DNA of 64,000 bases, taken from the NCBI GenBank assembly GCA_000004695.1, contig CM000154.2, positions 4,608,001-4,672,000 on the forward strand, in the 5' to 3' direction. The notes beneath the pieces were generated by a model. The model worked only from the letters and a program-made list of their open reading frames with translations. It did not search any database and was not told the origin of the DNA. Both the position numbers and the translations under genes were made by a program. Below are positions 16,322 to 59,213 of this stretch, piece by piece. Origin of the DNA: Dictyostelium discoideum (Eukaryota). Each line of letters opens with the position of its first letter. The first letter of the stretch is position 1.

Positions 16322-17596
16322 TTATAAAAGTTTAGCAATAATAAACCAATCTAATGATGGTATTAATTTTGAATTATTATCTAAAAGTTTTGAACCAAAA
16401 TGACCTGAATAAATTGTACTATTGTATTCTTGATCAATATCTTTTAATTTTATAGGACATGATACATATCCATTTGGAATTGAATCACCATTAACTCTTG
16501 GCCATGGAAAATCCTCTTCTTCATCAAAAAATAAAAATTTTTTATCATTGTATTTACCATCATTATCGAATACACAAAAAGTAGCTAACCAACCTGTTAA
16601 AACTGATCCACCAGATCGTTGTTTATAATCAACTATTTGATTCCACCAAGTTGTATCAGGATTTCCTTTTGCAGAATCAATGAATTTATCAATCACTGCT
16701 AATAAATATTTATTTAACCATTTTTTAATTACACCATCTTTATTATCGAATTGAATTAATTTTTCAACTCTTTCTTTTAAATTTATCCAATCATTAATTT
16801 CACCTAATAATGTTACTTCTGAAAGTCCACATTTACATCCATATCTATAATCGAAATATTTCTTCATTGTTGACATTAATGCAATTGAAAATACAACTTT
16901 ATCAGATTCTGTTGTAGTTGTAAAATCTGGTATAATTAAATCTTTAATTGATGGATCTTTAATATTTGATTGAATTTGATTTGACATTTCAATTGTTAAT
17001 TTTTCAAAAGGTGCTTCTAATATTCTATATTCAGTCTCAACTATTAATTCCTTTTTACCAGTAAAATCTACAAATTTTTCACGTAATTCTTCAGAGTTTT
17101 TATTTATGTAGAACGATAATTGAGTTAATATTGCCATCCAGATATTATCTGGACGTAATACCAAATGATTGTGATTATTATAACTTTCCCAAGCAGAGTA
17201 TACAAAACTATTTAAATTAAATGATTCTAATTTTGAACCATCATCATCGCCATTGATAATACTTGTTTGTAATACTTTGTATTTTTTAGATTCTTCACCA
17301 ATTTCATTTTTAATTATTGCACTTGCTTCCATTCTTTCTTGATAATAAATTGAATGATTATTTTTAATTGAATTTAAAGGTTCATTTGTTTTTAATAATT
17401 CATTTTTTAAAAAATCATCAACATTAAATTCATATTTTAATTCCCATTTATTTTGTTCAATATCACAAACTCTAAATGAAATTGATTTATTATTTTCATC
17501 TCTTTTAATTTTGAAATTGTATTTAATTACTTTTGAATCTTTACCATCCTCATCAGCATGATGACAATTTATATTTATTTTTCTATTATTTTTCAT
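16322..17596 (-). CDS. Uncharacterised multigene-family protein, copy 1.
   Basis: 424-aa intronless ORF. The conserved core YSAWESYNNHNHLVLRPDNIWMAILTQLSFYINKNSEELREKFVDFTGKKELIVE...PSLDWFIIAKLL is shared with 36529-37722 and 38192-39415. Confidence 0.7.
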   Translation of the reverse strand: MKNNRKININCHHADEDGKDSKVIKYNFKIKRDENNKSISFRVCDIEQNKWELKYEFNVDDFLKNELLKTNEPLNSIKNNHSIYYQERMEASAIIKNEIGEESKKYKVLQTSIINGDDDGSKLESFNLNSFVYSAWESYNNHNHLVLRPDNIWMAILTQLSFYINKNSEELREKFVDFTGKKELIVETEYRILEAPFEKLTIEMSNQIQSNIKDPSIKDLIIPDFTTTTESDKVVFSIALMSTMKKYFDYRYGCKCGLSEVTLLGEINDWINLKERVEKLIQFDNKDGVIKKWLNKYLLAVIDKFIDSAKGNPDTTWWNQIVDYKQRSGGSVLTGWLATFCVFDNDGKYNDKKFLFFDEEEDFPWPRVNGDSIPNGYVSCPIKLKDIDQEYNSTIYSGHFGSKLLDNNSKLIPSLDWFIIAKLL

Positions 17597-36528: not shown

Positions 36529-37722
36529 TCATAAAAGTTTAGCAATAATAAACCAATCTAATGATGGTATTAATTTTGAATTATTATCTAAAAGTTTTGA
36601 ACCGAAATGACCTGAATAAATTATACTATTATATTCTTGATCTAAATCTTTGAGTAAAACTGGACATGATACAAATCCATTTGGAATTGAATCAGCATTA
36701 ACTCTTGGCCATGGAAAATCCTCTTCTTCCTCAAAAGAATATGATTCTGTATATTCATCATCATTATATTTACCATCATTATCGAATACACAAAAAGTAG
36801 CTAACCAGCCTGTTAAAACATTGCCACCAGATTGTTCTCTATAATCTACTATCTGATTCCACCAAGTTGTATCAGGATTCCCATTTACAGAATCAATGAA
36901 TTTATCAATCACTGGTAATAAATAAACTAACCATTTTTTAATTTCACCATTTTTATTATCGAATTGAATTAATTTTTCAACTCTTTCTTTTAAATTTATC
37001 CAATCATTAATTTCACCTAATAATGTTACTTCTGAAAGGCCACAATATGTTTTAAAAACAAAATTAAAATATTTCTTCATTGTTGACATTAATGCAATTG
37101 AAAATACAACTTTATCAGATTCTGTCGTAGTTGTAAAATCTGGTATAATTAAATCTTTAATTGATGGATCTTTAATATTTGATTGAATTTGATTTGACAT
37201 TTCAATGGTTAATTTATCAAAAGGTGCTTCTAATATTGGATATACTGTCTCAACTATTAATTCTTTTTTACCAGTAAAATCTACAAATTTTTCACGTAAT
37301 TCTTCAGAGTTTTTATTTACGTAGAATGATAGTTGAGTTAATATTGCCATCCAGATATTATCAGGACGTAGTACTAAATGATTGTGATTATTATAACTTT
37401 CCCAAGCAGAGTATACGAAACTATTTGAACCAAAACATGCTAAATCATCATTAATAATACTTGTTTGCAATACTTTAACTCCTATATCAATTCCATTTTT
37501 TAATGATGGATCCATTGTTTTAAAAGATTCAGCATTTAAAAAATCATTAACTTTAAATTTACCATTAATTTCCCATTTATTTTGCTCAATATTACAAACT
37601 TTAAATGAAATTGATTTATTAATTTCATCTCTTTTAATTTTAGAATTGTATTTAATTACTTTTGAATCATTGTTAACAAAACCACTATGACTTCTTACTC
37701 TATAATTAAAAATAGTATTCAT
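36529..37722 (-). CDS. Uncharacterised multigene-family protein, copy 2.
   Basis: 397-aa intronless ORF sharing the conserved core with 16322-17596. Confidence 0.7.
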   Translation of the reverse strand: MNTIFNYRVRSHSGFVNNDSKVIKYNSKIKRDEINKSISFKVCNIEQNKWEINGKFKVNDFLNAESFKTMDPSLKNGIDIGVKVLQTSIINDDLACFGSNSFVYSAWESYNNHNHLVLRPDNIWMAILTQLSFYVNKNSEELREKFVDFTGKKELIVETVYPILEAPFDKLTIEMSNQIQSNIKDPSIKDLIIPDFTTTTESDKVVFSIALMSTMKKYFNFVFKTYCGLSEVTLLGEINDWINLKERVEKLIQFDNKNGEIKKWLVYLLPVIDKFIDSVNGNPDTTWWNQIVDYREQSGGNVLTGWLATFCVFDNDGKYNDDEYTESYSFEEEEDFPWPRVNADSIPNGFVSCPVLLKDLDQEYNSIIYSGHFGSKLLDNNSKLIPSLDWFIIAKLL

Positions 37723-38191: not shown

Positions 38192-39415
38192 TTATAAAAG
38201 TTTGGCAATAATAAACCAATCTAATGAAGGTATTAATTTTGAATTATTATCTAAAAGTTTTGAACCGAAATGACCTGAATAAATTGTACTATTATATTGA
38301 ATTTCACCTTGAATTAATTTGATTGGAGCTGATATAAAACCATTTGGAATTGAATCACCATTAACTCTAGGCCATTTATATTTTTTATCTTTATTACTCC
38401 ACCATAATATTAAATTATCATTGTATTTACCATCGATATCGAACACGCAAAAAGTAGCTAACCAACCTGTTAAAATCGATCCACCAGATGATGATTTATA
38501 ATCAACCATCTGATTCCACCAAGTTGTATCAGGATTCCCATTTACAGAATCAATGAATTTATCAATCACTGGTAATAAATAAACTAACCATTTTTTAATT
38601 TCACAATCTTTATTATCGAATTGAATTAATTTTTCAACTCTTTCTTTTAAATTTATCCAATCATTAATTTCACCTAATAATGTTACTTCTGGAAGACCAC
38701 AAGATGACATGCATTGATAATCGAAATATTTCTTCATTGTTGACATTAACGCAATTGAAAATACAACTTTATCAGATTCTGTTGTAGTTGTAAAATCTGG
38801 TATAATTAAATCTTTAATTGATGGATCTTTAATATTTGATTGAATTCGATTTGACATTTCAATTACAACTTCATCAAAAGGTGCTTCTAATATCGGATAA
38901 TCAGTCTCAACTATTAATTCTTTTTTACCAGTAAAATCTACAAATTTTTCACGTAATTCTTCAGAGTTTTTATTTATGTAGAATGATAGTTGAGTTAATA
39001 TTGCCATCCAGATATTATCAGGACGTAATACTAAATGATTATGATTATTATAACTTTCCCAAGCAGAGTATATAAAACTATTTGAACCACAACCAATATT
39101 TATTAAATCATCACCATCACCATCTGTAATACTTGTTTTTAAAACTTTATATTGTTCAGCATCATCACCTGTTTTTTCATTTTCCAAGTTTATAAATTCT
39201 TCAATACAAAATTTATCTTTTATTCCCCATGGACTTTTTTCAACTTCACAAACTTTAAATGTAATTGATTTATTATTTTCATCTCTTTTAATTGTTGAAT
39301 CATATTCAATTAATTTATATTTTGAATTATAAAATTCATTATCTTGATCATTTTCTTTGTTTTCATTATTTTTTTTTAATTTTTTGCTTGAAAACTTGGA
39401 AAATAATTTTTTCAT
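38192..39415 (-). CDS. Uncharacterised multigene-family protein, copy 3.
   Basis: 407-aa intronless ORF with the same conserved core and a divergent N-terminus. Confidence 0.7.
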   Translation of the reverse strand: MKKLFSKFSSKKLKKNNENKENDQDNEFYNSKYKLIEYDSTIKRDENNKSITFKVCEVEKSPWGIKDKFCIEEFINLENEKTGDDAEQYKVLKTSITDGDGDDLINIGCGSNSFIYSAWESYNNHNHLVLRPDNIWMAILTQLSFYINKNSEELREKFVDFTGKKELIVETDYPILEAPFDEVVIEMSNRIQSNIKDPSIKDLIIPDFTTTTESDKVVFSIALMSTMKKYFDYQCMSSCGLPEVTLLGEINDWINLKERVEKLIQFDNKDCEIKKWLVYLLPVIDKFIDSVNGNPDTTWWNQMVDYKSSSGGSILTGWLATFCVFDIDGKYNDNLILWWSNKDKKYKWPRVNGDSIPNGFISAPIKLIQGEIQYNSTIYSGHFGSKLLDNNSKLIPSLDWFIIAKLL

Positions 39416-39664: not shown

Positions 39665-41476
39665 TTAATACTTCCAATCAACAATATTATTTTGATTATA
39701 GTTATAAGATTTAAAATCTTTTTGAATTTTATCATAATAATCATTATTTGGAGTACCAATCATATTAAAAGAATGTAATTTAGAAAGGAAATAAAATTTA
39801 GAGAATCTATAGGTTGTATTTGATAAAGATTTGAAGAAAGATGAATTCCATAATGCACCAATACCATAGACACGATAATATAGTTTACAAATGATTAGAG
39901 ATAGATAAAAATTGGACCAAGATAAACATTTTGGTAAATTTAATCTTTTATGACCATACTTTGCAAGTGAGAGAGCATGATCATAGTCCCAAGATGAAGT
40001 TGGACTCCAATCACCCAATAATTGACCACCTCTATGATTATCCATGAATCCAATGTTTATAGAGTTTTCATTAGCATAATCCAAAGTTGCCAATAATTGA
40101 TTACGTAATGCTAAACCATTTTCATGATCAGTAGTGAAATGATCCGAGAAAATTGGACAAAGATGATATTTACCAATGTAAGCAGGCAATAATATGGAGA
40201 AATAAGTTGAAGATTCAAAATAAATTCTCCAACTCATAATTGAAGCATTACCTAAATGATTTGAATGATCTTTGATTAAATGATTATTAATTTGTGTTAC
40301 ACATCTAATTAATTTATCGAATGCTTCAACACGTCTATGATAGTCATTGGCAGCATTTGAAAGTTTAAACTTTAACATTTCAGTAAGACACTCGATCTCC
40401 ATAGCAATCATTACCATACCAGTTGAATAGAAAGGATCGAAAATTGCAGCAGCATCACCAATTACACACCAATTATTTTTAGAGAAAAAGGTTTTACTTG
40501 TATGTGCAAGTTTTGGCCAACGATGAAAGTCAACAATTTCACCACTTTTAATTAGATTATAGAGTAGTTTTTGATTCTTTTCAAGGAATGACATGAATTT
40601 ATCCAATGAATTTAATTGAGAAGGTTGAATTTTATCACGATGATATGAAACACCAATACTGTAATCACGAGAGCCTCTTTCCAAGGGGATCATCCAAATC
40701 CAATAGCCTGGACCAAAGAAATGATTGGTATCGTAGGTCCAAGAGCATGTCACATCTTGACTTTTGAAATCGAATAAACTTCTCTCTGTGTTTTTCACTC
40801 TCACCCAAGTGCTTGCATTATCCAGACCAAATAAATGCTTTGGATCCTTTAAAATGTTATCGGTACGAGATCCAACAGTAAAGTTTCTACCACTTGCATC
40901 CACAATATAATCAGTTGTCAATGTTATACGTTCAATTGATTGCTGTAATTTGAAATCGGCACCAGATTCAACTTCACTTAGAATTTCAACATCGATTGAT
41001 TTCATATCATCGTTATCTAAATTATCAACATTTCTAACTCTACCATGGTAGTAGACTGCGCCTTGGGCAATTACCATTTTCAATAGATCACGCTCAATCT
41101 TGCAACGGTTCAATTGAAAAGCTTGGATATCTGGATTCTTTACTGCCCATGTACTATAGTAGTCTTCAATGGTATCAGTCTTTGATAATTCTCTTGGCCA
41201 ATGAAATTGTAATGAAAATTTTGGTGGATGATTCTCTATTAAATAATCTTGTAACTCTAATTCTTTGGCGAAAAACATTGCACTAACTTCAACTGTTGAT
41301 TCTCCAACTTTATAATCTTCATCTAAATTATCTCTTCTCTCTGATCTTGGTTCTATCACTGCAATCCTACCAGATAATTCTGGCATTTTTAATAATAAAT
41401 GTCTAGTTGCTGATAATCCTGCTATACCACCACCAATTATAATAATATCATAATGATTAATAATATTTGTATCCAT
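39665..41476 (-). CDS. chlA: Flavin-dependent halogenase of the tryptophan-halogenase family, candidate ChlA-type chlorinase.
   Basis: 603-aa ORF with an N-terminal FAD-binding GxGxxG (IIIGGGIAGLSA) and a conserved Lys (DYKVGESTVE). The WxWxIP signature (GYWIWMIPL) distinguishes halogenases from monooxygenases. The gene symbol is an inference from adjacency to the Steely PKS. Confidence 0.8.
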   Translation of the reverse strand: MDTNIINHYDIIIIGGGIAGLSATRHLLLKMPELSGRIAVIEPRSERRDNLDEDYKVGESTVEVSAMFFAKELELQDYLIENHPPKFSLQFHWPRELSKTDTIEDYYSTWAVKNPDIQAFQLNRCKIERDLLKMVIAQGAVYYHGRVRNVDNLDNDDMKSIDVEILSEVESGADFKLQQSIERITLTTDYIVDASGRNFTVGSRTDNILKDPKHLFGLDNASTWVRVKNTERSLFDFKSQDVTCSWTYDTNHFFGPGYWIWMIPLERGSRDYSIGVSYHRDKIQPSQLNSLDKFMSFLEKNQKLLYNLIKSGEIVDFHRWPKLAHTSKTFFSKNNWCVIGDAAAIFDPFYSTGMVMIAMEIECLTEMLKFKLSNAANDYHRRVEAFDKLIRCVTQINNHLIKDHSNHLGNASIMSWRIYFESSTYFSILLPAYIGKYHLCPIFSDHFTTDHENGLALRNQLLATLDYANENSINIGFMDNHRGGQLLGDWSPTSSWDYDHALSLAKYGHKRLNLPKCLSWSNFYLSLIICKLYYRVYGIGALWNSSFFKSLSNTTYRFSKFYFLSKLHSFNMIGTPNNDYYDKIQKDFKSYNYNQNNIVDWKY

Positions 41477-43656
41477 CTTTTTTTTAAAAAAAAAAAAAAA
41501 GTTTTAAATTATTTATTTATTTATTTATTTATTTTTTTTAAAAAATTATTTTTAATTATTATTTTTTTTTTAAATTTATTTGTTTAAAAAAAAAAAAAAG
41601 TTTAAATTATTTTTAATTATTTTTTTTTTTTTTTTTTTTTTTCAATTTTTTTTTAATTTAAATAATAGTAATAAATAAATAAATTAAAAATATAATAAAT
41701 AGAATTTAGTATATTTGAAAATGAAAATAATAATAATAAAAAAAAATAAATTTTTCTTTGAATTTATAAAAAAAAAAAATAAAAAAAAAAAAAATATAAA
41801 TTAAAAATAAAAATAAAATTAAAATAACATATGTTAGTATCATTTTTTTTTAAAGAATGTTTCTGTGTTTGGTGATGATTTTTTTTTGTTGGGGGTGAAA
41901 AATAAAATAAAAAAATAAAAAAATTAAAATTATTTTCATTGGACCACCACAATGGGGGTGATTATTTTTTTTTTTTTTTTTTTTTTTTTAAAGATTTTGG
42001 TATTTATAAAAAATGTATATACAATACCCTTTGAGTTTATTAAAAATTTAATAATTTAAAAATAATAATAATAATAATAATTTTTTTATTTATTTATTTT
42101 AAAATAGAAAAAAAAAAAAAAATAATTTTATAATATTTTAAAAAATATTATTATTATTATTTTTGTTATTTCTAAATTTATTTAATGCACACCGAGATAA
42201 AATTAATTTTTTTTTTTTTTTTTATTTTTATAAAAAAAAAAGAAAATTTAAAAAATTATAATTTTTTTAAGTACAATAATATTGTTTAATAGTAATACTT
42301 AATTTTACCACATATTAAATTATTTAAAAACCATTGAATTTAAAAAAATTAATTTATAGATAAAAAAATTTAAATTTTTTTTGATTTTTTTAAATACCAA
42401 TTATTTATTTATTTTAAAAGTTGTCGATTTTTTACCTTTTAAAGTGTATTATTAAACAATAGTAAAAAAAAGGATTTCTTAATATTTTGAAGGTTAAAGA
42501 AAATTTGAATTGACCAATTTGAAGTTTATTAATAAAGATTATTCACAAGATAGTAATATATTCCTTTTATACTTAATCATAACTTTCAACGAAAAAGGAT
42601 TTGTTTTTTTTTTTAAAAAGACCAATCCCAATTAAAAATTGACCAATATTAATTTTTAAAAAAAAAGAAAAAAATTAAAAAAATAAATATAATTATTATT
42701 ATAAACTATTTTAAAAAACATTTATTAAGAATTATATCATTAATCTTTTTGAAGTATACAAGTAATTAAAATTATTTTTATTTCCCCCCCCCCCCCAACC
42801 TATTTTTTTTTATATTATAATAGATCAAAAAAGTAATCTTTTTTTTTTTTTTTTTTTTTACACAAATATGTCAATAATTTCATTTTGAACTATGAAAAAA
42901 TTTTGAGTTTTATAATAAATTAATATAGTTCTCGGCGTTTATTTTTTAAAAAAAAAAAATTGTTGTTTCAATTAAAATAATATTTATAAATATGAGTATG
43001 AATCTATTATTAATTATTTTTTAAAAAATATATTTTATATTTTTTAAAAAAAAAAAGTTTTAACTATAGATAAAATTTGGGGTCATTATTAAAATAAAAA
43101 TGAAAAAAATTAAAAAAAAATAAAAACCAAAGTATATCAATTTCATTGGATGATCTAAAACAATATTTATTTAAAATTAAGCCTCTTTTTAGTGAAATAC
43201 CGATTCTTAAAATAAATAATATTTATGTATCGGCTTCCTTTTATAAATTTTTTTTTTTTTTTTTTTTATTTTTCCTTTATTTTTTTTTTAATTTTTTTTT
43301 TTATATAAATATATGATTTTATTCATTTTTATAAAATCAATTCATTTAAAACCTATCAATAATTATAATAAGGGAATAATAATAATTTAATAAAAAAATA
43401 AAAAAATAAAAAATAGATATAATTATACATTTTAGTAGTCAATCTTTAATTTATAAAATAACAATTTTTTATTTATTTATCTGTTTATTTAAAAAATCAT
43501 TAAAACCGATATTTATTGTAAGGAAATTTTTTTTTATTTTAATCAAATCTAATAATAAGTGCAATGATTGATTTTTGTGATTTTTCAGATTTTTTTTTTT
43601 TTTTGATATTTTTTCCATAAACATATTTTTTTTTTTTTTTTTTTTTTTCTTTAACA

Positions 43657-43689
<33 letters not shown>

Positions 43690-43844
43690 AATTTTTTTTT
43701 TTTTTCCTTTATTAATTAAAAAAAATTATTAAAATTATTAAAATTATTAAAATTAAATTAAAAAAATTAAAAAAAAAACTTTTTTTTTTTTTGGGTTGGG
43801 GGGGGGGGTAAAAAACCTCTTTGTTTTCAAACAGATCTAACACT

Positions 43845-43900
<56 letters not shown>

Positions 43901-44247
43901 GATTAATTTTTTTTTATTATATTAATTTATTACATTAATTTTTTTTTTTTTATTCATTTTTTTATTATAAAATAGAATTGTTTAAAACATTTTCTTTTTT
44001 CAATTATATTTTTTTTAATAATTAATTATTATTATACTTATAAAATACATTTTTTCTATTTCAAATTATAATATTTATTATATATTATTAAAAATAATTA
44101 CAAAAAAAAAAAAATAATAAAATAAAAAAATAATTAAATTAACCACCCCCCCCACCAAAAAAAGAAAAAAAAAAAAAATAAACTATTAAAAGATTAGTGT
44201 AGTAATAATAATAATAAAAATAATAATAAAAAATATATATTTAGAAT
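41477..44247. promoter_or_regulatory. 2.8-kb AT-rich bidirectional promoter region between the halogenase and PKS genes, containing inverted C13/G11 runs.
   Basis: Divergent start codons at 41476 (minus strand) and 44248 (plus strand). C13AACC at 42786-42802 and GGTTG11 at 43793-43809 are reverse complements of each other, and there is an additional ACCAC7ACC at 44143. Confidence 0.4.
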
Positions 44248-46298
44248 ATGAACAACAACAAAAGTATAAACGATTTAAGTGGTAATAGCAACAACAACAT
44301 TGCAAACAGTAATATTAATAATTATAATAATTTAATTAAAAAGGAACCAATTGCAATTATTGGAATTGGTTGCAGATTCCCAGGAAACGTTTCAAATTAT
44401 TCCGATTTTGTTAATATAATTAAAAATGGTAGTGATTGTTTAACTAAAATTCCAGATGATAGATGGAATGCTGATATAATTTCAAGAAAACAATGGAAAT
44501 TAAATAATAGAATTGGCGGTTATTTAAAGAATATCGATCAATTTGATAATCAATTTTTTGGAATCTCACCAAAAGAAGCTCAACATATTGATCCACAACA
44601 AAGATTATTATTACATGTAAAGTATTAATTAATTTTATTTTTTTAAATCTATTTGGAAAGTAAAAAAAAAAAAAAACATATATAGATAAAAATAAATCTT
44701 TAAAATTTATTTTTATCTATATATGTTTTTTTTTTTTTTTTTTTTTTTTTTACTGAAAATTTTTATTTTTTTTTTATTTTTTTTTATTTTTTTTTTTTTT
44801 ACTTTCCAAATTTTTTTATTTTTTTCTAATTTTTTTTTTTTTTTTTTTTTTTTATTATTTCATTTTATTAAATAGCTTGCAATTGAAACATTAGAAGATG
44901 GAAAAATTAGTTTAGATGAAATTAAAGGTAAAAAAGTTGGAGTTTTTATTGGATCATCAAGTGGAGATTATTTGAGAGGATTTGATTCAAGTGAAATTAA
45001 TCAATTCACAACACCAGGAACCAATTCATCATTTTTAAGTAATAGATTATCCTATTTTTTAGATGTTAATGGACCAAGTATGACAGTGAATACAGCATGT
45101 TCAGCATCAATGGTAGCAATTCATTTAGGATTACAATCACTATGGAATGGTGAAAGTGAATTGTCAATGGTTGGTGGAGTGAATATTATTAGCTCACCGC
45201 TACAATCGTTGGATTTCGGTAAAGCAGGTTTACTAAATCAAGAGACCGATGGCAGGTGCTACTCTTTTGATCCACGTGCATCTGGATATGTTAGATCCGA
45301 AGGTGGAGGAATACTACTATTGAAGCCTTTATCCGCTGCCCTCAGAGACAATGATGAAATCTATTCATTACTTTTAAACTCTGCAAACAACTCCAATGGT
45401 AAAACACCAACTGGTATCACCTCACCAAGATCACTATGTCAAGAGAAATTGATTCAACAATTACTAAGAGAATCGTCAGACCAATTTAGTATTGACGATA
45501 TTGGCTATTTCGAATGTCATGGTACAGGCACACAAATGGGTGACCTCAATGAAATCACAGCAATTGGTAAATCGATTGGTATGTTAAAATCTCACGATGA
45601 TCCATTGATCATTGGTAGTGTGAAAGCCTCGATTGGCCATCTTGAGGGTGCAAGTGGTATTTGTGGTGTCATTAAATCAATCATTTGTTTAAAAGAGAAA
45701 ATCTTACCACAACAATGTAAATTCTCTTCTTATAATCCAAAAATACCATTTGAAACTTTAAATTTAAAAGTTTTAACAAAAACCCAACCTTGGAATAATT
45801 CAAAAAGAATTTGTGGTGTAAATTCATTTGGTGTTGGTGGTTCAAATTCAAGTTTATTTTTATCATCATTTGATAAATCAACAACAATAACAGAACCAAC
45901 AACAACAACAACAATTGAATCATTACCATCATCGTCATCATCTTTTGATAATTTATCAGTATCAAGTTCAATATCAACAAATAATGATAATGATAAAGTT
46001 AGCAATATTGTTAACAATAGATATGGCAGTAGTATTGATGTTATTACGTTATCAGTTACATCACCAGATAAAGAAGATTTAAAGATTAGAGCAAATGATG
46101 TTTTAGAATCAATTAAAACTTTAGATGATAATTTTAAAATTAGAGATATTTCAAATTTAACAAATATTAGAACAAGTCATTTTTCAAATAGAGTTGCCAT
46201 CATTGGTGATTCAATCGATTCAATTAAATTAAATTTACAATCATTTATTAAGGGTGAAAATAATAATAATAAATCAATAATATTACCTTTAATTAATA

Positions 46299-46331
<33 letters not shown>

Positions 46332-48012
46332 GTAGTGGTAGTAGTAGTAGTAGTAGTAATAATAATAATATTTGTTTTATATTTTCAGGTCAAGGTCAAC
46401 AATGGAATAAAATGATATTCGATTTATATGAAAATAATAAAACATTTAAAAATGAAATGAATAATTTTAGTAAACAATTTGAAATGATTTCAGGTTGGTC
46501 AATTATTGATAAATTATATAATAGTGGTGGTGGTGGTAATGAAGAATTAATTAATGAAACTTGGTTAGCACAACCATCAATTGTTGCAGTTCAATATTCA
46601 TTAATTAAATTATTTTCAAAAGATATTGGTATTGAAGGTTCAATTGTGTTGGGACATAGTTTAGGTGAATTGATGGCAGCTTATTATTGTGGTATCATTA
46701 ATGATTTCAATGATCTATTGAAATTGTTATATATTAGATCAACACTTCAAAATAAAACCAATGGTAGTGGAAGAATGCATGTTTGTTTATCTTCAAAAGC
46801 AGAGATTGAACAATTGATCTCTCAATTAGGATTCAATGGTAGAATCGTAATTTGTGGTAATAACACCATGAAATCATGTACAATCTCTGGTGATAATGAA
46901 TCAATGAATCAATTCACAAAGTTAATATCATCACAACAGTATGGTTCGGTGGTGCATAAAGAGGTTCGTACAAATTCAGCATTTCATTCTCATCAAATGG
47001 ATATTATCAAAGATGAATTCTTTAAATTGTTTAATCAATACTTTCCAACCAACCAAATCAGTACAAATCAAATCTACGATGGTAAATCATTTTATTCAAC
47101 TTGTTATGGTAAATATTTAACACCGATTGAATGTAAACAATTATTATCATCACCAAATTATTGGTGGAAAAATATCAGAGAATCAGTATTATTCAAAGAA
47201 TCAATTGAACAAATCTTACAAAATCATCAACAATCTTTAACATTTATTGAAATTACTTGTCATCCAATTTTAAATTATTTTTTAAGTCAATTATTAAAAT
47301 CATCAAGTAAATCAAACACATTACTTTTATCAACACTTTCAAAGAATTCAAATTCAATTGATCAATTATTAATATTATGTTCAAAATTATATGTTAATAA
47401 TTTATCATCAATTAAATGGAATTGGTTTTATGATAAACAACAACAACAGCAATCAGAAAGTTTAGTATCATCAAATTTTAAATTACCAGGTAGAAGATGG
47501 AAACTTGAAAAATATTGGATTGAAAATTGTCAAAGACAAATGGATAGAATTAAACCACCAATGTTTATATCATTAGATAGAAAGTTATTCTCTGTTACAC
47601 CATCATTTGAAGTTAGATTAAATCAAGATAGATTTCAATATTTAAATGATCATCAAATTCAAGATATTCCATTGGTACCATTTTCATTCTATATTGAATT
47701 GGTTTATGCTTCAATATTTAATTCAATCTCAACTACCACCACCAACACCACAGCATCAACAATGTTTGAAATTGAAAATTTTACAATTGATAGTTCAATT
47801 ATAATTGATCAAAAGAAATCAACTTTAATTGGTATTAATTTTAATTCTGATTTAACTAAATTTGAAATTGGTAGTATTAATAGCATTGGTAGTGGTAGTA
47901 GTAGTAATAATAATTTTATTGAAAATAAATGGAAAATTCATTCAAATGGTATAATTAAATATGGTACAAATTATTTAAAATCAAATTCAAAATCAAATTC
48001 ATTTAATGAATC

Positions 48013-48047
<35 letters not shown>

Positions 48048-51000
48048 AATGTTTTAAATCATTTAATTCAAATGAATTTTATAATGAAATTATTAAATAT
48101 AATTATAATTACAAGAGTACTTTTCAATGTGTTAAAGAGTTTAAACAATTTGATAAACAAGGTACATTCTATTATTCAGAGATTCAATTCAAAAAGAATG
48201 ATAAACAAGTCATTGATCAATTATTATCAAAACAATTACCAAGTGATTTTAGATGTATTCATCCATGTTTATTAGATGCAGTTTTACAATCTGCTATCAT
48301 ACCAGCAACAAATAAAACTAATTGTAGTTGGATACCAATTAAAATTGGTAAATTATCTGTAAATATACCTTCAAATTCATATTTTAATTTTAAAGATCAA
48401 TTATTATATTGTTTAATTAAACCATCAACATCAACATCAACATCACCATCAACATACTTTTCATCTGATATTCAAGTATTTGATAAAAAGAATAATAATT
48501 TAATTTGTGAATTAACAAATTTAGAATTTAAAGGTATTAATTCATCATCATCATCATCATCATCATCATCTACAATAAATTCAAATGTTGAAGCTAATTA
48601 TGAATCAAAAATTGAAGAAACTAATCATGATGAGGATGAGGATGAAGAATTACCATTAGTTTCAGAATATGTTTGGTGTAAAGAAGAATTAATTAATCAA
48701 TCAATTAAATTTACAGATAATTATCAAACTGTTATTTTCTGTTCAACAAATTTAAATGGTAATGATTTATTAGATAGTATTATAACAAGTGCATTAGAGA
48801 ATGGTCATGATGAGAATAAGATATTCATTGTTTCACCACCACCAGTCGAATCGGATCAATATAATAATCGTATCATTATAAATTATACAAATAATGAATC
48901 TGATTTCGATGCTTTATTCGCAATCATTAATTCAACAACTTCAATCAGTGGAAAGAGTGGTTTATTTTCAACACGTTTTATCATTTTACCAAATTTTAAT
49001 TCAATTACTTTTTCAAGTGGTAATTCAACTCCATTAATAACTAATGTCAATGGTAATGGTAATGGTAAGAGTTGTGGTGGTGGTGGTGGTAGTACAAATA
49101 ACACAATTTCAAATTCATCATCATCAATATCAAGTATTGATAATGGTAATAATGAAGATGAAGAAATGGTATTAAAATCATTTAATGATTCAAATTTATC
49201 ATTATTCCATTTACAAAAATCAATTATTAAAAATAATATTAAAGGTAGATTATTTTTAATTACAAATGGTGGTCAATCAATTTCAAGCTCAACTCCAACC
49301 TCAACATATAATGATCAATCATATGTTAATCTATCACAATATCAATTAATTGGTCAAATTAGAGTATTTTCAAATGAATATCCAATTATGGAATGTTCAA
49401 TGATTGATATTCAAGATTCAACTAGAATTGATTTAATTACTGATCAATTAAATTCAACAAAGTTATCAAAACTTGAAATTGCATTTAGAGATAATATTGG
49501 TTATAGTTATAAATTATTAAAACCATCAATTTTTGATAATTCTTCATTGCCATCATCATCATCAGAAATAGAAACAACAGCAACAACAAAAGATGAAGAA
49601 AAAAATAATTCAATAAATTATAATAATAATTATTATAGAGTTGAATTATCTGATAATGGTATAATTTCAGATTTAAAGATTAAACAATTTAGACAAATGA
49701 AATGTGGTGTTGGTCAAGTTTTAGTTAGAGTTGAAATGTGTACTTTAAATTTTAGAGATATTCTTAAATCATTAGGTCGTGATTATGATCCAATTCATTT
49801 AAATTCAATGGGTGATGAATTCTCTGGTAAAGTCATTGAAATTGGTGAAGGTGTTAATAATTTATCAGTTGGTCAATATGTTTTTGGTATAAATATGTCA
49901 AAATCAATGGGTAGTTTTGTTTGTTGTAATTCTGATTTAGTATTTCCAATTCCAATTCCAACTCCATCATCATCATCATCATCAAATGAAAATATTGATG
50001 ATCAAGAAATTATTTCAAAATTATTAAATCAATATTGTACAATACCAATTGTATTTTTAACATCATGGTATAGTATTGTAATTCAAGGTAGATTAAAAAA
50101 AGGTGAGAAAATTTTAATACATTCAGGATGTGGTGGTGTTGGTTTAGCAACTATTCAAATTTCAATGATGATTGGTGCTGAAATTCATGTTACAGTTGGT
50201 TCAAATGAAAAGAAACAATATTTAATCAAAGAGTTTGGCATTGATGAGAAGAGAATCTATTCATCAAGATCATTGCAATTCTATAATGATTTAATGGTGA
50301 ATACTGATGGTCAAGGTGTTGATATGGTTTTAAATTCATTGTCTGGTGAATATTTAGAGAAATCAATTCAATGTTTATCCCAGTATGGTAGATTCATTGA
50401 AATTGGTAAAAAAGATATTTACTCGAATTCAAGTATTCATTTAGAACCATTTAAAAATAATTTATCATTTTTCGCAGTTGATATTGCACAAATGACAGAA
50501 AATCGTAGAGATTATCTAAGAGAGATAATGATCGATCAGCTATTACCATGTTTTAAAAATGGTTCTTTGAAACCATTGAATCAACATTGTTTCAATTCAC
50601 CTTGTGATCTTGTTAAAGCCATTAGATTCATGTCATCCGGTAATCATATTGGTAAAATCTTAATCAATTGGTCCAATTTAAATAATGATAAACAATTCAT
50701 TAATCATCATTCAGTTGTTCATTTACCAATTCAATCATTTTCTAATAGATCAACTTATATTTTCACTGGTTTTGGTGGTTTAACTCAAACATTATTAAAA
50801 TATTTTTCAACAGAATCTGATTTAACAAATGTTATAATAGTTAGTAAAAATGGTTTAGATGATAATAGTGGTAGTGGTAGTGGTAATAATGAAAAATTAA
50901 AATTAATTAATCAATTAAAAGAATCTGGTTTAAATGTATTGGTTGAAAAATGTGATTTGTCATCAATTAAACAAGTTTATAAATTATTTAACAAGATTTT

Positions 51001-53413
51001 TGATAATGATGCTAGTGGTAGTGATAGTGGTGATTTTAGTGATATTAAAGGTATTTTCCATTTTGCATCATTGATTAATGATAAAAGAATTTTAAAACAT
51101 AATTTAGAATCATTTAATTATGTTTATAATAGTAAGGCTACTAGTGCTTGGAATTTACATCAAGTTTCATTAAAATATAATTTAAATTTGGATCATTTCC
51201 AAACTATTGGTTCAGTCATTACAATTCTTGGTAATATTGGTCAAAGCAATTACACTTGTGCAAATAGATTCGTTGAAGGTTTAACTCATTTACGTATTGG
51301 TATGGGTTTGAAATCAAGTTGTATTCATTTAGCTTCTATACCTGATGTTGGTATGGCTTCAAATGATAATGTTTTAAATGATTTAAATTCAATGGGTTTT
51401 GTGCCATTCCAATCACTCAATGAAATGAATTTAGGTTTTAAGAAATTATTATCATCACCAAATCCAATCGTTGTACTTGGTGAAATTAATGTTGATAGAT
51501 TCATTGAAGCAACTCCAAACTTTAGAGCAAAAGATAATTTCATTATTACTTCATTATTTAATCGTATTGATCCTTTACTATTAGTAAATGAAAGTCAAGA
51601 TTTTATTATTAATAATAATATTAATAATAATGGTGGTGGCGGCGATGGTAGTTTTGATGATTTAAATCAATTAGAAGATGAAGGACAACAAGGATTTGGT
51701 AATGGTGATGGTTATGTTGATGATAATATTGATAGTGTTTCAATGCTATCTGGAACATCATCTATTTTTGATAATGATTTCTATACTAAATCAATTAGAG
51801 GTATGCTTTGTGATATTTTAGAATTAAAAGATAAAGATTTAAATAATACAGTATCATTTAGTGACTATGGTTTAGATTCATTACTATCAAGTGAATTATC
51901 AAACACAATTCAAAAGAATTTCAGTATATTAATTCCAAGTTTAACTTTAGTTGATAATTCAACCATTAATTCAACTGTTGAATTAATTAAAAATAAATTA
52001 AAGAATTCAACAACTTCTTCAATTTCTTCAAGTGTATCTAAAAAAGTTTCATTTAAAAAAAATACTCAACCATTAATTATACCAACAACAGCACCAATAT
52101 CAATAATTAAAACACAAAGTTATATCAAATCTGAAATTATTGAATCATTACCAATTAGTAGTAGTACAACTATTAAACCATTGGTATTTGATAATTTAGT
52201 TTATAGTAGTAGTAGTAGTAATAATAGTAATTCTAAAAATGAATTAACATCACCACCACCAAGTGCAAAGAGAGAATCAGTTTTACCAATAATATCAGAA
52301 GATAATAATAGTGATAACGATTCGTCAATGGCAACAGTAATTTATGAAATTTCACCAATTGCTGCACCATATCATAGATATCAAACTGATGTATTAAAAG
52401 AGATTACACAATTAACACCACATAAAGAGTTTATTGATAATATTTATAAGAAATCAAAGATTAGATCAAGATATTGTTTCAATGATTTCTCTGAGAAATC
52501 AATGGCTGATATTAATAAATTGGATGCAGGTGAAAGAGTTGCACTCTTTAGAGAACAAACTTATCAAACAGTTATCAATGCAGGTAAAACAGTGATAGAG
52601 AGAGCTGGTATTGATCCAATGTTAATTAGTCATGTCGTTGGTGTCACTAGTACTGGTATTATGGCACCCTCTTTCGATGTGGTACTCATTGATAAATTGG
52701 GTCTATCAATTAATACTAGTAGAACTATGATCAATTTCATGGGTTGTGGTGCCGCTGTCAATTCAATGAGAGCTGCCACTGCTTATGCTAAATTAAAACC
52801 TGGTACTTTTGTATTGGTGGTTGCAGTGGAGGCATCGGCAACCTGTATGAAATTCAATTTCGATAGTCGTAGTGATCTATTATCACAAGCTATCTTTACC
52901 GATGGTTGTGTAGCTACGTTGGTAACTTGTCAACCAAAATCATCATTAGTTGGTAAATTGGAAATCATCGATGACTTGTCCTATTTAATGCCAGATTCAA
53001 GAGACGCTTTAAATCTATTCATTGGTCCAACTGGTATTGATTTAGATTTACGTCCTGAATTACCAATTGCAATCAATAGACATATCAATAGTGCTATTAC
53101 AAGTTGGTTGAAAAAGAATTCACTTCAAAAGAGTGATATCGAATTCTTTGCTACTCATCCTGGTGGTGCTAAAATCATTTCTGCCGTTCATGAAGGGTTA
53201 GGTTTATCACCAGAAGATCTATCAGATTCTTATGAAGTTATGAAAAGATATGGTAATATGATAGGTGTTTCAACTTATTATGTTTTACGTAGAATTTTAG
53301 ATAAAAATCAAACATTACTTCAAGAAGGTTCTTTAGGTTATAATTATGGTATGGCTATGGCCTTTTCACCTGGTGCTTCAATTGAAGCAATTTTATTTAA
53401 ATTAATTAAATAA
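44248..53413 (+). CDS. stlB: Steely-type hybrid polyketide synthase: type I FAS-like KS-AT-DH-ER-KR-ACP fused to a C-terminal type III (chalcone-synthase-like) PKS. Exons are 44248-44616 and 44876-53413, giving 2968 aa.
   Basis: KS (GIGCRFPG...DPQQRLLL|LAIETLEDG...TACSAS...HGTGT), AT (GHSLGE), DH (HxxxGxxxxP at NDHQIQDIPLVPF), ER (HSGCGGVGLA), KR (FTGFGGLTQ) and ACP (YGLDSLLSSEL). The C-terminal domain has the Cys/His/Asn triad of type III PKS (NFMGCGAAV, FFATHPGG, YGNMIGVS). The stlB assignment, as opposed to stlA, rests on length and the halogenase neighbour and is less certain than the family call. Confidence 0.85.
44676..44726. other. Perfect 22-bp-stem hairpin within PKS intron 1.
   Basis: ACATATATAGATAAAAATAAAT (44676-44697), loop CTTTAAA, then the exact reverse complement at 44705-44726. 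It is flanked by poly(A) and poly(T). There is additional imperfect symmetry between 44650-44675 and 44795-44815. Confidence 0.7.
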
Positions 53414-54420: not shown

Positions 54421-57400
54421 ATGATGAATAAAATAGTTTATTTATTATTTTTTTTTATAATTTTAAATGTCGGATTTGTGTATTCAAAATTTGACATATT
54501 TGATATAACACCACAAAATAAACAAATTTCATACCCAGAAAGTTACTCAAGCCACCAATGCGCCATTTATAAATATATTTTAGTAAAAAATACAACACAA
54601 CCAGAAAGTATAGATAATATTAATCCAGCGAGTTTCTTTTTAACTTCCAATAGTGATAGTGCTATTTATTACCACTATTTGGTATTGGAGTTTGGAAAAG
54701 AACAACAAATCAATTTTACTGTTAATGGAATGGATACTGAAACTGGTTATCTAACAGTTAATTGTATTTGTAAAGGTAATTTATTTTTTATTGTTTTTTA
54801 TTTTATTGTTTTTTCACCCTTTTTCATCCTCCATTTTTTATTAAAGTACTAGTAACAGTTATTTGTTATCAACCAAATTTCAAAAAAAAAAAAAAAAAAA
54901 AAAAAATTATCTAATTTGGTAAAACAATAAATAAAAACATATTAATTTAGTTTTATTTTTTTTTTTAAAAAAAAGAGATAAATGTTTCATTGATTACAAT
55001 AGATATTATACAAAGCGTAACATGGAGTGATCATTTAAAGTATTCATCAATTGTTAGATTAAATGGAGTTCCAGATGAAAGTCCAAATCCAGGTGTTGAT
55101 GGTGTAATATTAAATAGATTGGGAAATTCATTATTCCAAATTCTTTATAAAGAAATTTATTACACCAAAATATCACCAAACCAACTCCAATGGGATATTG
55201 ATTTAGAATTTACAAATAAACAAATTTTAAAAGTTTCAGTTCCATTAAATCAATCAAGTAAGTTATTATTTTTTTTTTATCTCTCTCCAAAACTAGGATA
55301 TCCAATTATTAACCATACTTTAAAATTAAAATTAAACAAAAAGATATTGGACAAATTAATAATGTATTTGGATTTGAAGTTTATAAACAAAATAATTATC
55401 AATATAATGGTTTTTTTGGAGGTGGTTTATTATTTAAATCAAATTCTTCTATTCAAAGACCAATTTATACAGTTCTTTCACTCGTGAGTCCTTATTATTT
55501 TACAATGACACCTATTTCTGGAGTATTTCAAAATGTAACATATTATTTAAACCTTTTCCCAATTGCACCATTTAATCAAAGTTTTTCATTAAACTCTCAA
55601 AATGAAGATCTTTCTTTTGAAATTAAATATGAAACTTTTATAGAATTTATAAGTAAGTTTTCTTTCTTTTTTTTTTTTTTTTTTTTTTATCTAAAATTTA
55701 AAAAATTAATAATATGTATTTAAAATTTAATTTAAACTAGGTCAATCTGTTTCTGCATATTCACCAGCCACTCTTAGATATGATAACAGCTCTAGTTCAA
55801 TTGTATTTTATACAGGTTATTTTGATGGTGTTTCTCCTTATGACTTTAGATCATTTAAATGTAAGTCAAAAGGATTATTTGATTATGGAATAAACTATGC
55901 CTTCCCATTTGGATTTGTAAGTGGTAATAACGAGAATTCAGGAATGGGTATTTCAATACCAATGTCTCCAATTTCATCAAAGGATAAATTTGAATTCACA
56001 TATGATAGTATTAATGTTCCAATTGATGTTTTTTATACATTAGGTAAGTTTATTAAAAAAAAAAAAAAAAAAATTAGATAAATCAGTTTTATTAATATCC
56101 ATTAAATTTAATTTTTTTTTAAAAAAAAAGTTGATTCAAAACCATATCCATATATAACATCAATGGAAAAGATAAATATATATGGATTTAAATATATAGT
56201 AATTATAAATGCATATGATTCTTTTGGTGTAAAATATATCCATACAAGTGTGAATGGAGCATATATTAGAATTGGAACAGAATCATTGGTAAATGGAGAT
56301 AATAAAAATGGAGTTTGGGAATTTTTACATGATGGAGTTAAATTGGGAAGTGATTACGTTAATTCATTTACCATTGAAAATTTTTACGATTTAAAACAAG
56401 AATATCAACCATCCTATCCTTTTTCAACTTCAAATATTGACCAAACATTAGTTTTACCAGAAATTAAATTAAGTGGTATGTATTATTTAATTTAATTTAT
56501 AAAAATAATCTTAATTTAACTTTTATGATTTATTAATTTAATTTAATTTTTTTAAAAAAAAAAAGATAAAATTAATTTTTATAATGATATAAAAGATATT
56601 ACATTTAAGTTTAATAATGTTCATATTACAAATCAAAGTGTAGATAATATTTTATATTTTACATTTGATAATATTGAAAATTATAAAGATTTATCTATTG
56701 GTTTTTCATTAAATGACCCAAAATCATTAAAAGATATGAATTATCAAAGAGATATTAATAATCAAGTAAATTTTAATGATTATACATTTGCTCAATGGGA
56801 TGAATCAAATAGTAGATTTAGTGTTATGTTTAAAATGCCAGCAAATGTTATTCCAGGTGTATTAGATTGGTCATTAACTTTTTCAAAATATTATTCACTT
56901 ATTAGTACTGCTTTACCAGATCAATATCAATTAAAAGTAGTTTCAGAAAATATTGATATCATTGGTCCAATTGTAACAAAGGTTATTAAAAAAACTCCAA
57001 CTGATTTCGGAACTTTAAATGTTGGTTGGTTATTAACAATTGAAGATGAAATTAATGGTTTACTAAATGGTTTTATTACAATTAGAGGTGTTTTAGATTC
57101 ATCAGTATACAATTTCACAATTACACCATTAACAGCAGTAATTGGAAGTGGTGATAAATGGAAAGCAGATTATTTAATTTCAATTCCTTTAGATGGTAGT
57201 TTAAATAATTATGGTTGTATTATTCAAGATTATAGAATTTCAGATTTAAAACTTGTTGATTCATTTGGTAATACAAATTCTTATAACCATAATGTTAAAG
57301 CTAATGATGGTTCTTTAGACTATTCTTTATTTCAACGTCCAAATCCATTTTACTTATTTGATTTAAGCGAATTGACATTTTCAATTGATAATACAATGTG

Positions 57401-59213
57401 CAATGCTGTTTTTGATTCAACTGGACCAAAATTAACTTCTTTCCAAATTTCAAAAACAAAAATCGATGTAGGTTCACAAGATAGATCAATTACCTTTGAT
57501 TTTGCTGCACAAGATTTAGATAGTGGTTTGAAAGATGCTCAATTTCCAATTGTTTATTTAACAACTCAAAATCTTGATACTGCTCAATGTGTTTCTACTA
57601 TTGTTTCAAAAACAGATACATCTACTAATTATACATGTACAATTGATGTACCATTAGGTTTTTCTTATCCATTAGGTTTCACAGTATCAGTTTATGGTTT
57701 CATTAATAATGGTGGTTACTATTCTGGTTTCCCAACTGATGTAATTAAATCAATTTCACCAAATGCTTGGTATGTTTCAACAGATCAATATTCAATGGAT
57801 ATTCCAATCATTACAAGTTCAACAGTAATAACAAATCAAGGTGGTAATTTATGGTTAGGTGGTAGAGGTTTTAATTTTGTAGATGAAATTAAAATTACTT
57901 ACTCACCATCCAATATAGTATATAAACAAGTTTCAACTAATAAATTTAATAGTGCTTTATTAGTTTCTGATATTATTTCAACAAACGATCCATTTACAAT
58001 TCAACTCACAAATTCATCACCATTAAAACAATCAAATATATTTACAATTAATCCAGTATTATACTTTTTTAATTATACTGATCCAATTCCAACTACTTCT
58101 CCAACTCCAACTACTTCTCCAACTGTAGCCCCAACTAAATCACCAATTCCAACTAATCCTCCACAAAAATGTAAAGGTAATCCAGAATGTGGTGGAGAGG
58201 ATAAAGGTGCTTGTACAAGTAAAGGTTGTATTTGTTTCACTCCATGGTTTGGTCCGGATTGTAGTTCAAAATTAGTTGAAGTTGTACCACCATTAATTAA
58301 TGGTACTGGTCCATCTGTTGAAATCCCAACTCCTGGAGGAGAAGGTGGTTCATCAACAACAAGTGGAGGTTTACCACCACAAATAATTTATAAAACATTA
58401 GTTTCAGTTGTTTCATTAAGAGAATTAGATTTTAATGGTAAAGCAATAAAAACTATACCATTAAATTCATGGGAATATACTGAAATAAACTCAACAATTA
58501 GTCGATATGATACAATATTAACAATTGAGGGTAAACAAGAAAAAGTTAATGTAACTACAGTAATGCAGTGGTTTGATAAGAGTTCAACAATAGTTTTCGC
58601 AGGTCAACAATTAAAAATGAATCCATCAACTATTAAATTCAATATTGACATTTCAAGTTACCCTTTTTCACAAGCATTAAATCAACTTCAATTAGTAATG
58701 TCTGCAACATTAATTTCATCTGGTAATGATAATAGTGATATATGTTCATCAAAATCATTTGGTGATACAACAAATGGCGATGATTCAAACTTTATAAAAT
58801 TGCAAGTTGATGATCATTCTGTTTATGGTAGATTCTTAAAGAGAGCAATCGTTGATGATATCATTATTAGTGTTGATAATGTTTTATTAGATAGTTCATT
58901 AAATTCAATTGAATCAAATACACATACTCAACAATCATTTATTGGTATTAATATTCCACATTTTAGTAGACATGTTTCAATTGATCCTGATTTTTCACTT
59001 TTAATTGATCAAAATCCTGCATCAAAGTCAAGTGAAAATTCAATATGTTCAAATGATTCTGGTTTATCAAAAGGTCAAATTGCTGGTATTGTAATTGGTG
59101 CCACTGGATTTGCAGCAGTTGTATTTGTTAGTGCACTTTATTCAATTCACAAAACTAGATCAAACAAAAAAATGATTTCCAATATCTCAAAAAAATTAGA
59201 AACAATTAAATAA
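54421..59213 (+). CDS. Multi-exon type I membrane protein with an EGF-like module, paralogous in its C-terminal half to 12649-16076.
   Basis: Signal peptide MMNKIVYLLFFFIILNVGFVYS. About 9 exons joined by GTAAGT/GTATGT donors: 54421-54777, about 54990-55255, 55343-55482, 55500-55655, 55741-55862, about 55865-56043, 56130-56476 and 56570-59213. EGF-like CKGNPECGGEDKGACTSKGCICFTPWFGPDC. TM segment IAGIVIGATGFAAVVFVSALYSI. Shares the YGRF(L/I)(K/N)RA motif with the 12649 gene. Confidence 0.65.

Follow-up and report, generated by a model that had tools for sequence, protein, structure and literature searches.

The 64-kb window of the Dictyostelium discoideum genome that we have analysed (64,000 nucleotides, numbered from the first letter of the stretch) contains two adjacent and divergently transcribed genes, chlA on the minus strand and stlB on the plus strand. 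In our judgement, this feature is almost certainly the established chlA-stlB locus of D. discoideum AX4, which serves the biosynthesis of DIF-1 (differentiation-inducing factor 1). The halogenase open reading frame (ORF) and the spliced polyketide synthase (PKS) both matched public D. discoideum AX4 proteins residue for residue in an exact-sequence look-up; hence, the pattern is not a product of chance. No gene lies between the two, their start codons are 2771 bp apart, and the G+C content of the window (~22%) is at the level expected for a dictyostelid genome.

An initial annotation of the stretch had proposed a two-gene locus for a chlorinated polyketide of the DIF-1 type. This was supported by the identity of the two proteins with ChlA and StlB, and the coordinates, the protein lengths and the “2.8-kb” spacer were all correct when derived again. 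The first-stage reader had picked out a genuine biosynthetic unit of two genes from the bare sequence. The reading of the locus was right, but its presentation as a candidate went too far, as the locus is already established. The description cited for it is reportedly that of Neumann, Walsh and Kay in 2010. The locus is already known, with its shared promoter region, its enzymology and its mutant phenotypes, because all of these have been published, together with the co-expression and knockout checks that the annotation had proposed (summarised in PMC9489281). According to that work, chlA and stlB are adjacent and have a common promoter region, while DmtA is not adjacent. The chlA and stlB mRNAs accumulate together, both promoter reporters are expressed in prespore cells of slugs and then in the stalk and the basal disc of the fruiting body, and mutants of either gene (stlB-, chlA-) no longer contain any chlorinated compound (PMC9489281). 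When compared with the published locus (chlA, DDB_G0290825; stlB, DDB_G0290853), the proteins, the promoter primers and the amplicon size were identical, with no difference. In what follows, statements on chemistry, expression patterns and mutant phenotypes draw on the literature, whereas gene identity and structure, motifs, primer mapping and pair conservation come from the present analysis.

The halogenase gene and its motifs were located as follows.
39665..41476, minus strand: chlA coding sequence, single exon, 603 amino acids plus stop (ORF and translation, exact match to Q54FI4, Pfam).
41417..41434, minus strand: GxGxxG FAD-binding motif GGGIAG, residues 15-20 (motif scan and alignment).
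40685..40702, minus strand: WxWxIP signature WIWMIP, residues 259-264 (motif scan and alignment).
41219..41221, minus strand: codon of Lys86, the candidate catalytic lysine (invariance in the alignment).

The exact-sequence look-up returned EAL62046.1 / XP_635556.1 / UniRef100_Q54FI4, “Flavin-dependent halogenase chlA” (DDB_G0290825), for this ORF. The initial annotation had not decided if this enzyme is the DIF chlorinase, and the match settled the point in favour of ChlA; re-inspection of the 603-residue minus-strand protein confirmed both the WxWxIP and the GxGxxG motif. The WxWxIP motif separates halogenases from flavin monooxygenases. Residues G15, G17, G20, K86, W259, W261 and P264 of ChlA were invariant across 28 aligned homologues from dictyostelids and cyanobacteria (alignment A1); GDAAAIFDPFYSTG occupies residues 340-353. 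K86 was aligned with the KK dipeptide of PltA, and Lys86 is a candidate for the active-site lysine, a catalytic role suggested by analogy with known flavin-dependent halogenases.

The alternative that the ORF encodes another flavin monooxygenase, or a halogenase paralogue other than the DIF-1 chlorinase, could draw on the modest match to the Pfam family Trp_halogenase (PF04820; 46.8 bits for a cut-off of 21) and on the weak matches (E about 1e-8) to the closest solved structures, namely PltA, CmlS and other FADH2-dependent halogenases. Yet the protein is 100% identical to ChlA Q54FI4 / DDB_G0290825, whose knockout abolishes chlorinated compounds, and WxWxIP, GxGxxG and Lys86 are invariant across the homologues. 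The exact match to Q54FI4 refuted a non-ChlA paralogue, to which we assign a negligible probability. For the dichlorination of trihydroxyphenyl hexanone (THPH) by ChlA, reported in vitro and in vivo, PMC9489281 cites Neumann et al. 2010.

The PKS gene comprises two exons, and the domains of its product map as listed.
44248..44616, plus strand: stlB exon 1, residues 1-123, with the start of the ketosynthase (KS) domain (ATG at 44248; splicing yields Q54FI3).
44617..44875, plus strand: stlB intron, 259 nt, GT..AG (GTAAAG...AAATAG); splicing restores the frame.
44876..53413, plus strand: stlB exon 2, residues 124-2968 plus stop, the stop codon at 53411-53413 (open frame, Pfam, exact match).
44344..45724, plus strand: KS domain, residues 33-406, spanning the intron, with TACSAS at 196-201 containing the active-site Cys (Pfam PF00109/PF02801).
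46376..47368, plus strand: acyltransferase (AT) domain, residues 624-954, with GHSLGE at 716-721 (Pfam, motif).
47597..48535, plus strand: dehydratase (DH) domain, residues ~1031-1343 (Pfam PF21089/PF14765).
49712..50665, plus strand: enoyl reductase (ER) domain, residues ~1736-2053 (Pfam ADH_N / ADH_zinc_N).
50753..51334, plus strand: ketoreductase (KR) domain, residues 2083-2276 (Pfam PF08659).
51794..52018, plus strand: acyl carrier protein (ACP) domain, residues 2430-2504, with the phosphopantetheine Ser in GLDSL at 2455-2459 (Pfam, motif).
52412..53401, plus strand: type III PKS (chalcone synthase-like) domain, residues ~2636-2965 (Pfam PF00195/PF02797, Chal_sti_synt_N/C).

Splicing of exon 1 to exon 2 gave exactly 2968 residues with one terminal stop, and the order of the Pfam domains on this single spliced ORF confirmed the predicted KS-AT-DH-ER-KR-ACP-chalcone synthase fusion. 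The Cys2747-His2884-Asn2917 triad of the type III domain was intact, as were the KS, AT and ACP motifs. The look-up identified the protein as EAL62021.1 / XP_635518.1 / UniRef100_Q54FI3, “Polyketide synthase 37” (pks37), STLB_DICDI, DDB_G0290853. Whether the PKS is StlA or StlB had been left undecided in the initial annotation, and the exact match to STLB_DICDI resolved this as StlB. StlA (Steely1, the synthase of 4-methyl-5-pentylbenzene-1,3-diol, or MPBD; type III domain structure PDB 2H84) has the same overall Steely architecture, being likewise a hybrid of a type I fatty acid synthase (FAS)-like module with a C-terminal type III PKS. However, StlA is not the neighbour gene of chlA, and the type III domains of the two proteins are just 28.5% identical, compared with 47-75% identity between the StlB domain and StlB-clade proteins of other dictyostelids. 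The StlB domain falls in a clade separate from that of Steely1, and its nearest solved structures were Ectocarpus PKS III (4B0N) and Mycobacterium tuberculosis PKS18, with Steely1 2H84 more distant. Together with the exact match over 2968 amino acids, this refuted the assignment to StlA, the chance of which we regard as minute.

The stlB intron (259 nt) compares with a break of ~61 nt at the same position in Polysphondylium violaceum, Tieghemostelium lacteum and Heterostelium album. From their sequence, we read the shorter breaks in these PKS genes as probably the same conserved intron site. The D. discoideum intron also contains a 44-nt near-perfect palindrome (93% complementary; arms at 44657-44700 and 44702-44745) with another inverted pair, TTTGGAAAGTA ... 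TACTTTCCAAA, on its two sides, and the core sequence is unique within the window.

In the published pathway, the type I FAS-like module of StlB (KS-AT-DH-ER-KR-ACP) assembles a hexanoyl primer on its ACP and hands it to the fused C-terminal type III domain, where the addition of three malonyl units and cyclisation give the acylphloroglucinol THPH. ChlA, a halogenase that came from bacteria by lateral transfer, chlorinates THPH twice, and DmtA, encoded elsewhere (DDB_G0289329), O-methylates the dichlorinated product to yield DIF-1. Late release of StlB's chalcone-synthase domain has been described, and this domain is by itself sufficient for the synthesis of the chlorinated dibenzofuran (CDF) CDF-1 (PMC9489281). 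In late development, chlA and stlB supply CDF-1 to -3 in the stalk by way of the type III domain freed by proteolysis. Transcription runs divergently from the 2.77-kb A/T-rich spacer, with an identical spatial pattern on either side, prespore in slugs and then stalk and basal disc.

The window was also searched for a DmtA-like methyltransferase. Neither Pfam analysis of 20 further ORFs nor tblastn with an O-methyltransferase probe (E<=1) detected a DmtA-like or Methyltransf_2 gene in the 64 kb, and the presence of such a gene in the window was rejected. The locus resembles fungal secondary-metabolite clusters with divergent promoters in that a backbone synthase and a tailoring enzyme are divergent and co-regulated. 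It differs from them in linking only two of the three pathway genes, with dmtA elsewhere, and in that a cluster-specific regulator or transporter is not evident among the Pfam-annotated neighbours of chlA-stlB.

Three features of the spacer were placed on the map, none of them assigned to a strand.
41477..44247: shared intergenic/promoter region, 2771 bp, ~12% G+C, between the ATG codons of chlA and stlB.
41868..41882: candidate cis-element TTTGGTGATGATTTT, ~390 bp upstream of the chlA ATG, exact in three species.
43829..43844: candidate cis-element AAACAGATCTAACA, with an AGATCT palindrome core, ~405-420 bp upstream of the stlB ATG.

The stlB promoter fragment of PMC9489281 is 2831 bp long, 30 bp of it belonging to the chlA coding sequence, and the published primers mapped without mismatch at 41447-41476 and 44248-44277, which delimit exactly 2831 bp, as reported. 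The chlA promoter fragment of the same work is stated to contain 77 bp of coding sequence, which agrees with the positions of its primers here, 41400-41422 and 43181-43202. This second fragment (41400-43202) measures 1803 bp here and 1781 bp in PMC9489281, the 22-nt gap being exactly as long as one primer. That the 2.77-kb spacer hides a gene or an RNA was rejected, the search having returned no credible ORF and no tRNA; the repeats found there were low-complexity A/T runs.

We have compared the spacer with its orthologues from D. citrinum and D. firmibasis, which measure 2867 bp (L011) and 2900 bp (L010), respectively. Global identity was 70% and 58%, respectively, in DNA that is 86-88% A+T, and strict footprinting of the three-species alignment (19 of 20 columns identical) found nothing. 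A relaxed version of this test and an alignment-free one yielded no more than two or three short blocks. Of exact and collinear G/C-containing blocks, only two, TTTGGTGATGATTTT and AAACAGATCTAACA, were common to the three spacers. Seven 12-mers with at least three G/C were shared, compared with none in 200 dinucleotide shuffles, a null that ignores shared ancestry. Because common descent is not accounted for in this null, the blocks are put forward from the sequence comparison as candidate conserved cis-elements only. Weaker and partly conserved G/C islands, CACCGAGATAAAATTAATT and TATTTATGTATCGGCTTC (42188-42208 and 43221-43238), were also seen in the three-species alignment; the alignment-free test of the three spacers gave them no support.

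No evidence in conflict with the identification of the locus emerged. Several observations weigh against reading chlA and stlB as a complete unit driven by one shared element. The DIF-1 pathway is not fully clustered, with the O-methyltransferase not in the window and dmtA separate (DDB_G0289329). The published chlA reporter fragment, 1.8 kb long (41400-43202), reproduces the expression pattern although it omits the stlB-proximal ~1 kb. The only conserved G/C-containing blocks of the spacer are ~1.96 kb apart, each sitting ~400 bp from its own ATG. Based on the reporter fragment and on the position of the blocks, the spacer may hold two separate proximal promoters instead of one shared element. 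Such independent, gene-proximal promoters, with the arrangement kept by inertia or weak selection, would also be in keeping with the length of the spacer and with the unlinked position of full-length StlB relative to chlA in Cavenderia fasciculata. We regard this alternative as possible but doubtful, in view of the matching temporal and spatial expression described in the literature and of the conservation of the pair described below. We infer that selection for co-regulation maintains the divergent arrangement of chlA and stlB.

The divergent pair was recovered in other dictyostelids. In P. violaceum, the 2798-aa Steely CYY_002060 is divergent to chlA CYY_002059 at a distance of 4.9 kb; in T. 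lacteum, a 2688-aa PKS (StlB DLA_07519 in the published table) lies 3.6 kb from chlA DLA_07521, again divergent. The same orientation was found for StlB PPL_00289 and chlA PPL_00287 of H. album, and for the Steely SAMD00019534_003150 of Acytostelium subglobosum, which is 2.35 kb from a 633-aa halogenase. The halogenase and Steely genes are numbered consecutively in two EukProt gene sets, and the corresponding locus tags are adjacent in D. cf. discoideum (ACTFIY_001032 and 001033). In D. purpureum, where the gap lies between GL871035.1 and GL871482.1, chlA and stlB each occupy the end of a contig and point outward with the 5' side, which is compatible with a divergent pair but does not prove it. 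The neighbouring PKS genes are collinear with StlB, with 56-71% identity of the KS domain, and belong to the StlB clade by their type III domains; a published orthologue table assigns the genes of the divergent pairs of other dictyostelids as stlB and chlA. The divergent orientation and a spacer of 2.3-4.9 kb have thus been kept in five genera (groups 2, 3 and 4 plus P. violaceum), which argues against independent promoters held together by inertia, as does the StlB-type chalcone-synthase gene that is still divergent to chlA in C. fasciculata.

Two further observations were made on the Steely genes of these species. A. subglobosum (L007, L008) has two StlB-clade Steely genes, which are sisters (100% bootstrap), and only SAMD00019534_003150 is divergent to a halogenase; none was found within 8 kb of the second one (...107370). 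In D. citrinum, the model P0169 (4352 aa; L011:6001-20858, JBTAPK010000038.1) joins StlB to DUF7034, DUF7035 and DUF7949, domains also present in the separate ComC-like gene at 56736-59213 of the window, downstream of stlB. P0169 looks like a gene-model fusion artefact.

In C. fasciculata (GL883029.1), chlA DFA_11777 is divergent to P0133, a free-standing type III PKS of 459 aa with an intact Cys-His-Asn triad.
L005:6410-7789, minus strand: one gene of this C. fasciculata pair.
L005:10001-11955, plus strand: the other gene of the pair.

The full-length StlB of this species, DFA_09640, is on another contig, and no halogenase was found nearby. In a neighbour-joining (NJ) tree, P0133 was sister to the type III domain of DFA_09640 with 100% bootstrap. 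P0133 is therefore a lineage-specific derivative, and the possibility that this free-standing chalcone synthase represents the ancestral unfused state was rejected. The separate C. fasciculata gene has a parallel in D. discoideum, where proteolysis is reported to free the chalcone-synthase domain from StlB.

The T. lacteum locus (LODT01000034.1) contains a second halogenase (535 aa, L003:12726-14333, plus strand) downstream of chlA DLA_07521 and, near it, a 559-aa O-methyltransferase with Dimerisation and Methyltransf_2 domains (L003:15017-16696, plus strand). With StlB and chlA, these make up a four-gene arrangement. The clustered methyltransferase was rejected as the DmtA orthologue, the published one being DLA_03400 (353 aa), elsewhere in the genome. 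A third T. lacteum halogenase paralogue, P0021 (DLAC_08131), is on another contig.

In the literature searched, no explicit statement of the deep conservation of the pair or of its variants in C. fasciculata and T. lacteum was found; the adjacency can nevertheless be read from the locus tags in published orthologue tables. The only material that may be new is comparative, consisting of the deep conservation of the pair and these two variants.

The origin of the pair was addressed with 75 bacterial loci that encode ChlA relatives (L012-L086), taken with flanks of 10 kb on either side. The best non-dictyostelid matches to ChlA were cyanobacterial, with 40-43% identity over the full length, in agreement with the published acquisition of chlA from prokaryotes by lateral transfer (PMC4931340). 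ChlA has in common with bacterial variant-B halogenases (PltA, CmlS and cyanobacterial ChlA-like proteins) the GxGxxG, WxWxIP and GDAAxxxDPxxSxG motifs and the invariant Lys. Their genomic setting is different: the bacterial genes run in the same direction as the type I KS/AT genes of their clusters, often with two or three halogenase paralogues and never with an adjacent type III PKS, whereas the partner of chlA is a divergent Steely PKS. KS/AT genes occurred within 10 kb in 33 of the 75 loci, usually ~6-8 kb upstream and co-directional; these KS genes were mostly distant relatives (median identity 27%) and were not head-to-head with the halogenase. Many of the cyanobacterial loci had two or three strong ChlA matches, which we read as paralogues, and a few non-cyanobacterial metagenome-assembled genomes (Verrucomicrobiales, Rickettsiales, Myxococcota) contained ChlA relatives at 33-43% identity.

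A halogenase and a type III PKS could have entered the dictyostelid ancestor as a linked bacterial pair, the latter being fused afterwards to a resident type I PKS. In line with such a co-transfer, chlA is a published case of lateral transfer (PMC4931340), the StlB type III domain is more distant from Steely1 than from the type III PKSs of bacteria and algae, and a free-standing type III PKS adjoins chlA in C. fasciculata. However, the last of these genes is a lineage-specific derivative that groups with its own species' Steely domain (100% bootstrap) and not the ancestral unfused state, and none of the 75 bacterial loci had a type III PKS within 10 kb of the ChlA relative. For this latter reason co-transfer was not supported. 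With the nearby KS genes being distant and co-directional, it was rejected, and we consider it very improbable.

Other genes of the window were recorded beside the pair. Three DUF4419 (PF14388) paralogues of 397-424 aa are present, all on the minus strand, and the first two form a tandem directly downstream of chlA.
36529-37722, minus strand: DUF4419 paralogue.
38192-39415, minus strand: DUF4419 paralogue.
16322-17596, minus strand: DUF4419 paralogue.
12921-15746, minus strand: gene with a ComC-supersandwich domain.
56736-59213, plus strand: gene with a ComC-supersandwich domain.

No DUF4419-type Pfam match was recorded next to chlA in the loci of other species, and there is no evidence that these genes belong to the pathway. 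The two ComC-supersandwich-domain genes flank the D. discoideum region. In C. fasciculata, the full-length StlB gene that is unlinked to chlA also has two genes with this domain directly upstream (L009:1-6942), and they could be a synteny remnant of the stlB side of the locus.

The finding of the chlA-stlB locus itself adds nothing new. The comparative results, namely the conservation of the pair, the C. fasciculata chalcone synthase and the T. lacteum cluster, offer a small, testable lead on the tie between a laterally acquired halogenase and a PKS, and they bear on whether defence chemistry preceded morphogen signalling. The chlorinated dibenzofurans of D. discoideum, made via the released StlB domain, are antibacterial. 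We tentatively propose, as a scenario that may well prove wrong, that the divergent arrangement of chlA and an StlB-type type III PKS was ancestral to all Dictyostelia and has been preserved by selection. In C. fasciculata the pair would have been reduced to the halogenase and an StlB-derived chalcone synthase, the genetic counterpart of the released domain that makes CDFs. The ancestral role of the pair may then have been chlorinated defence, with DIF-1 signalling as a later use in group 4.

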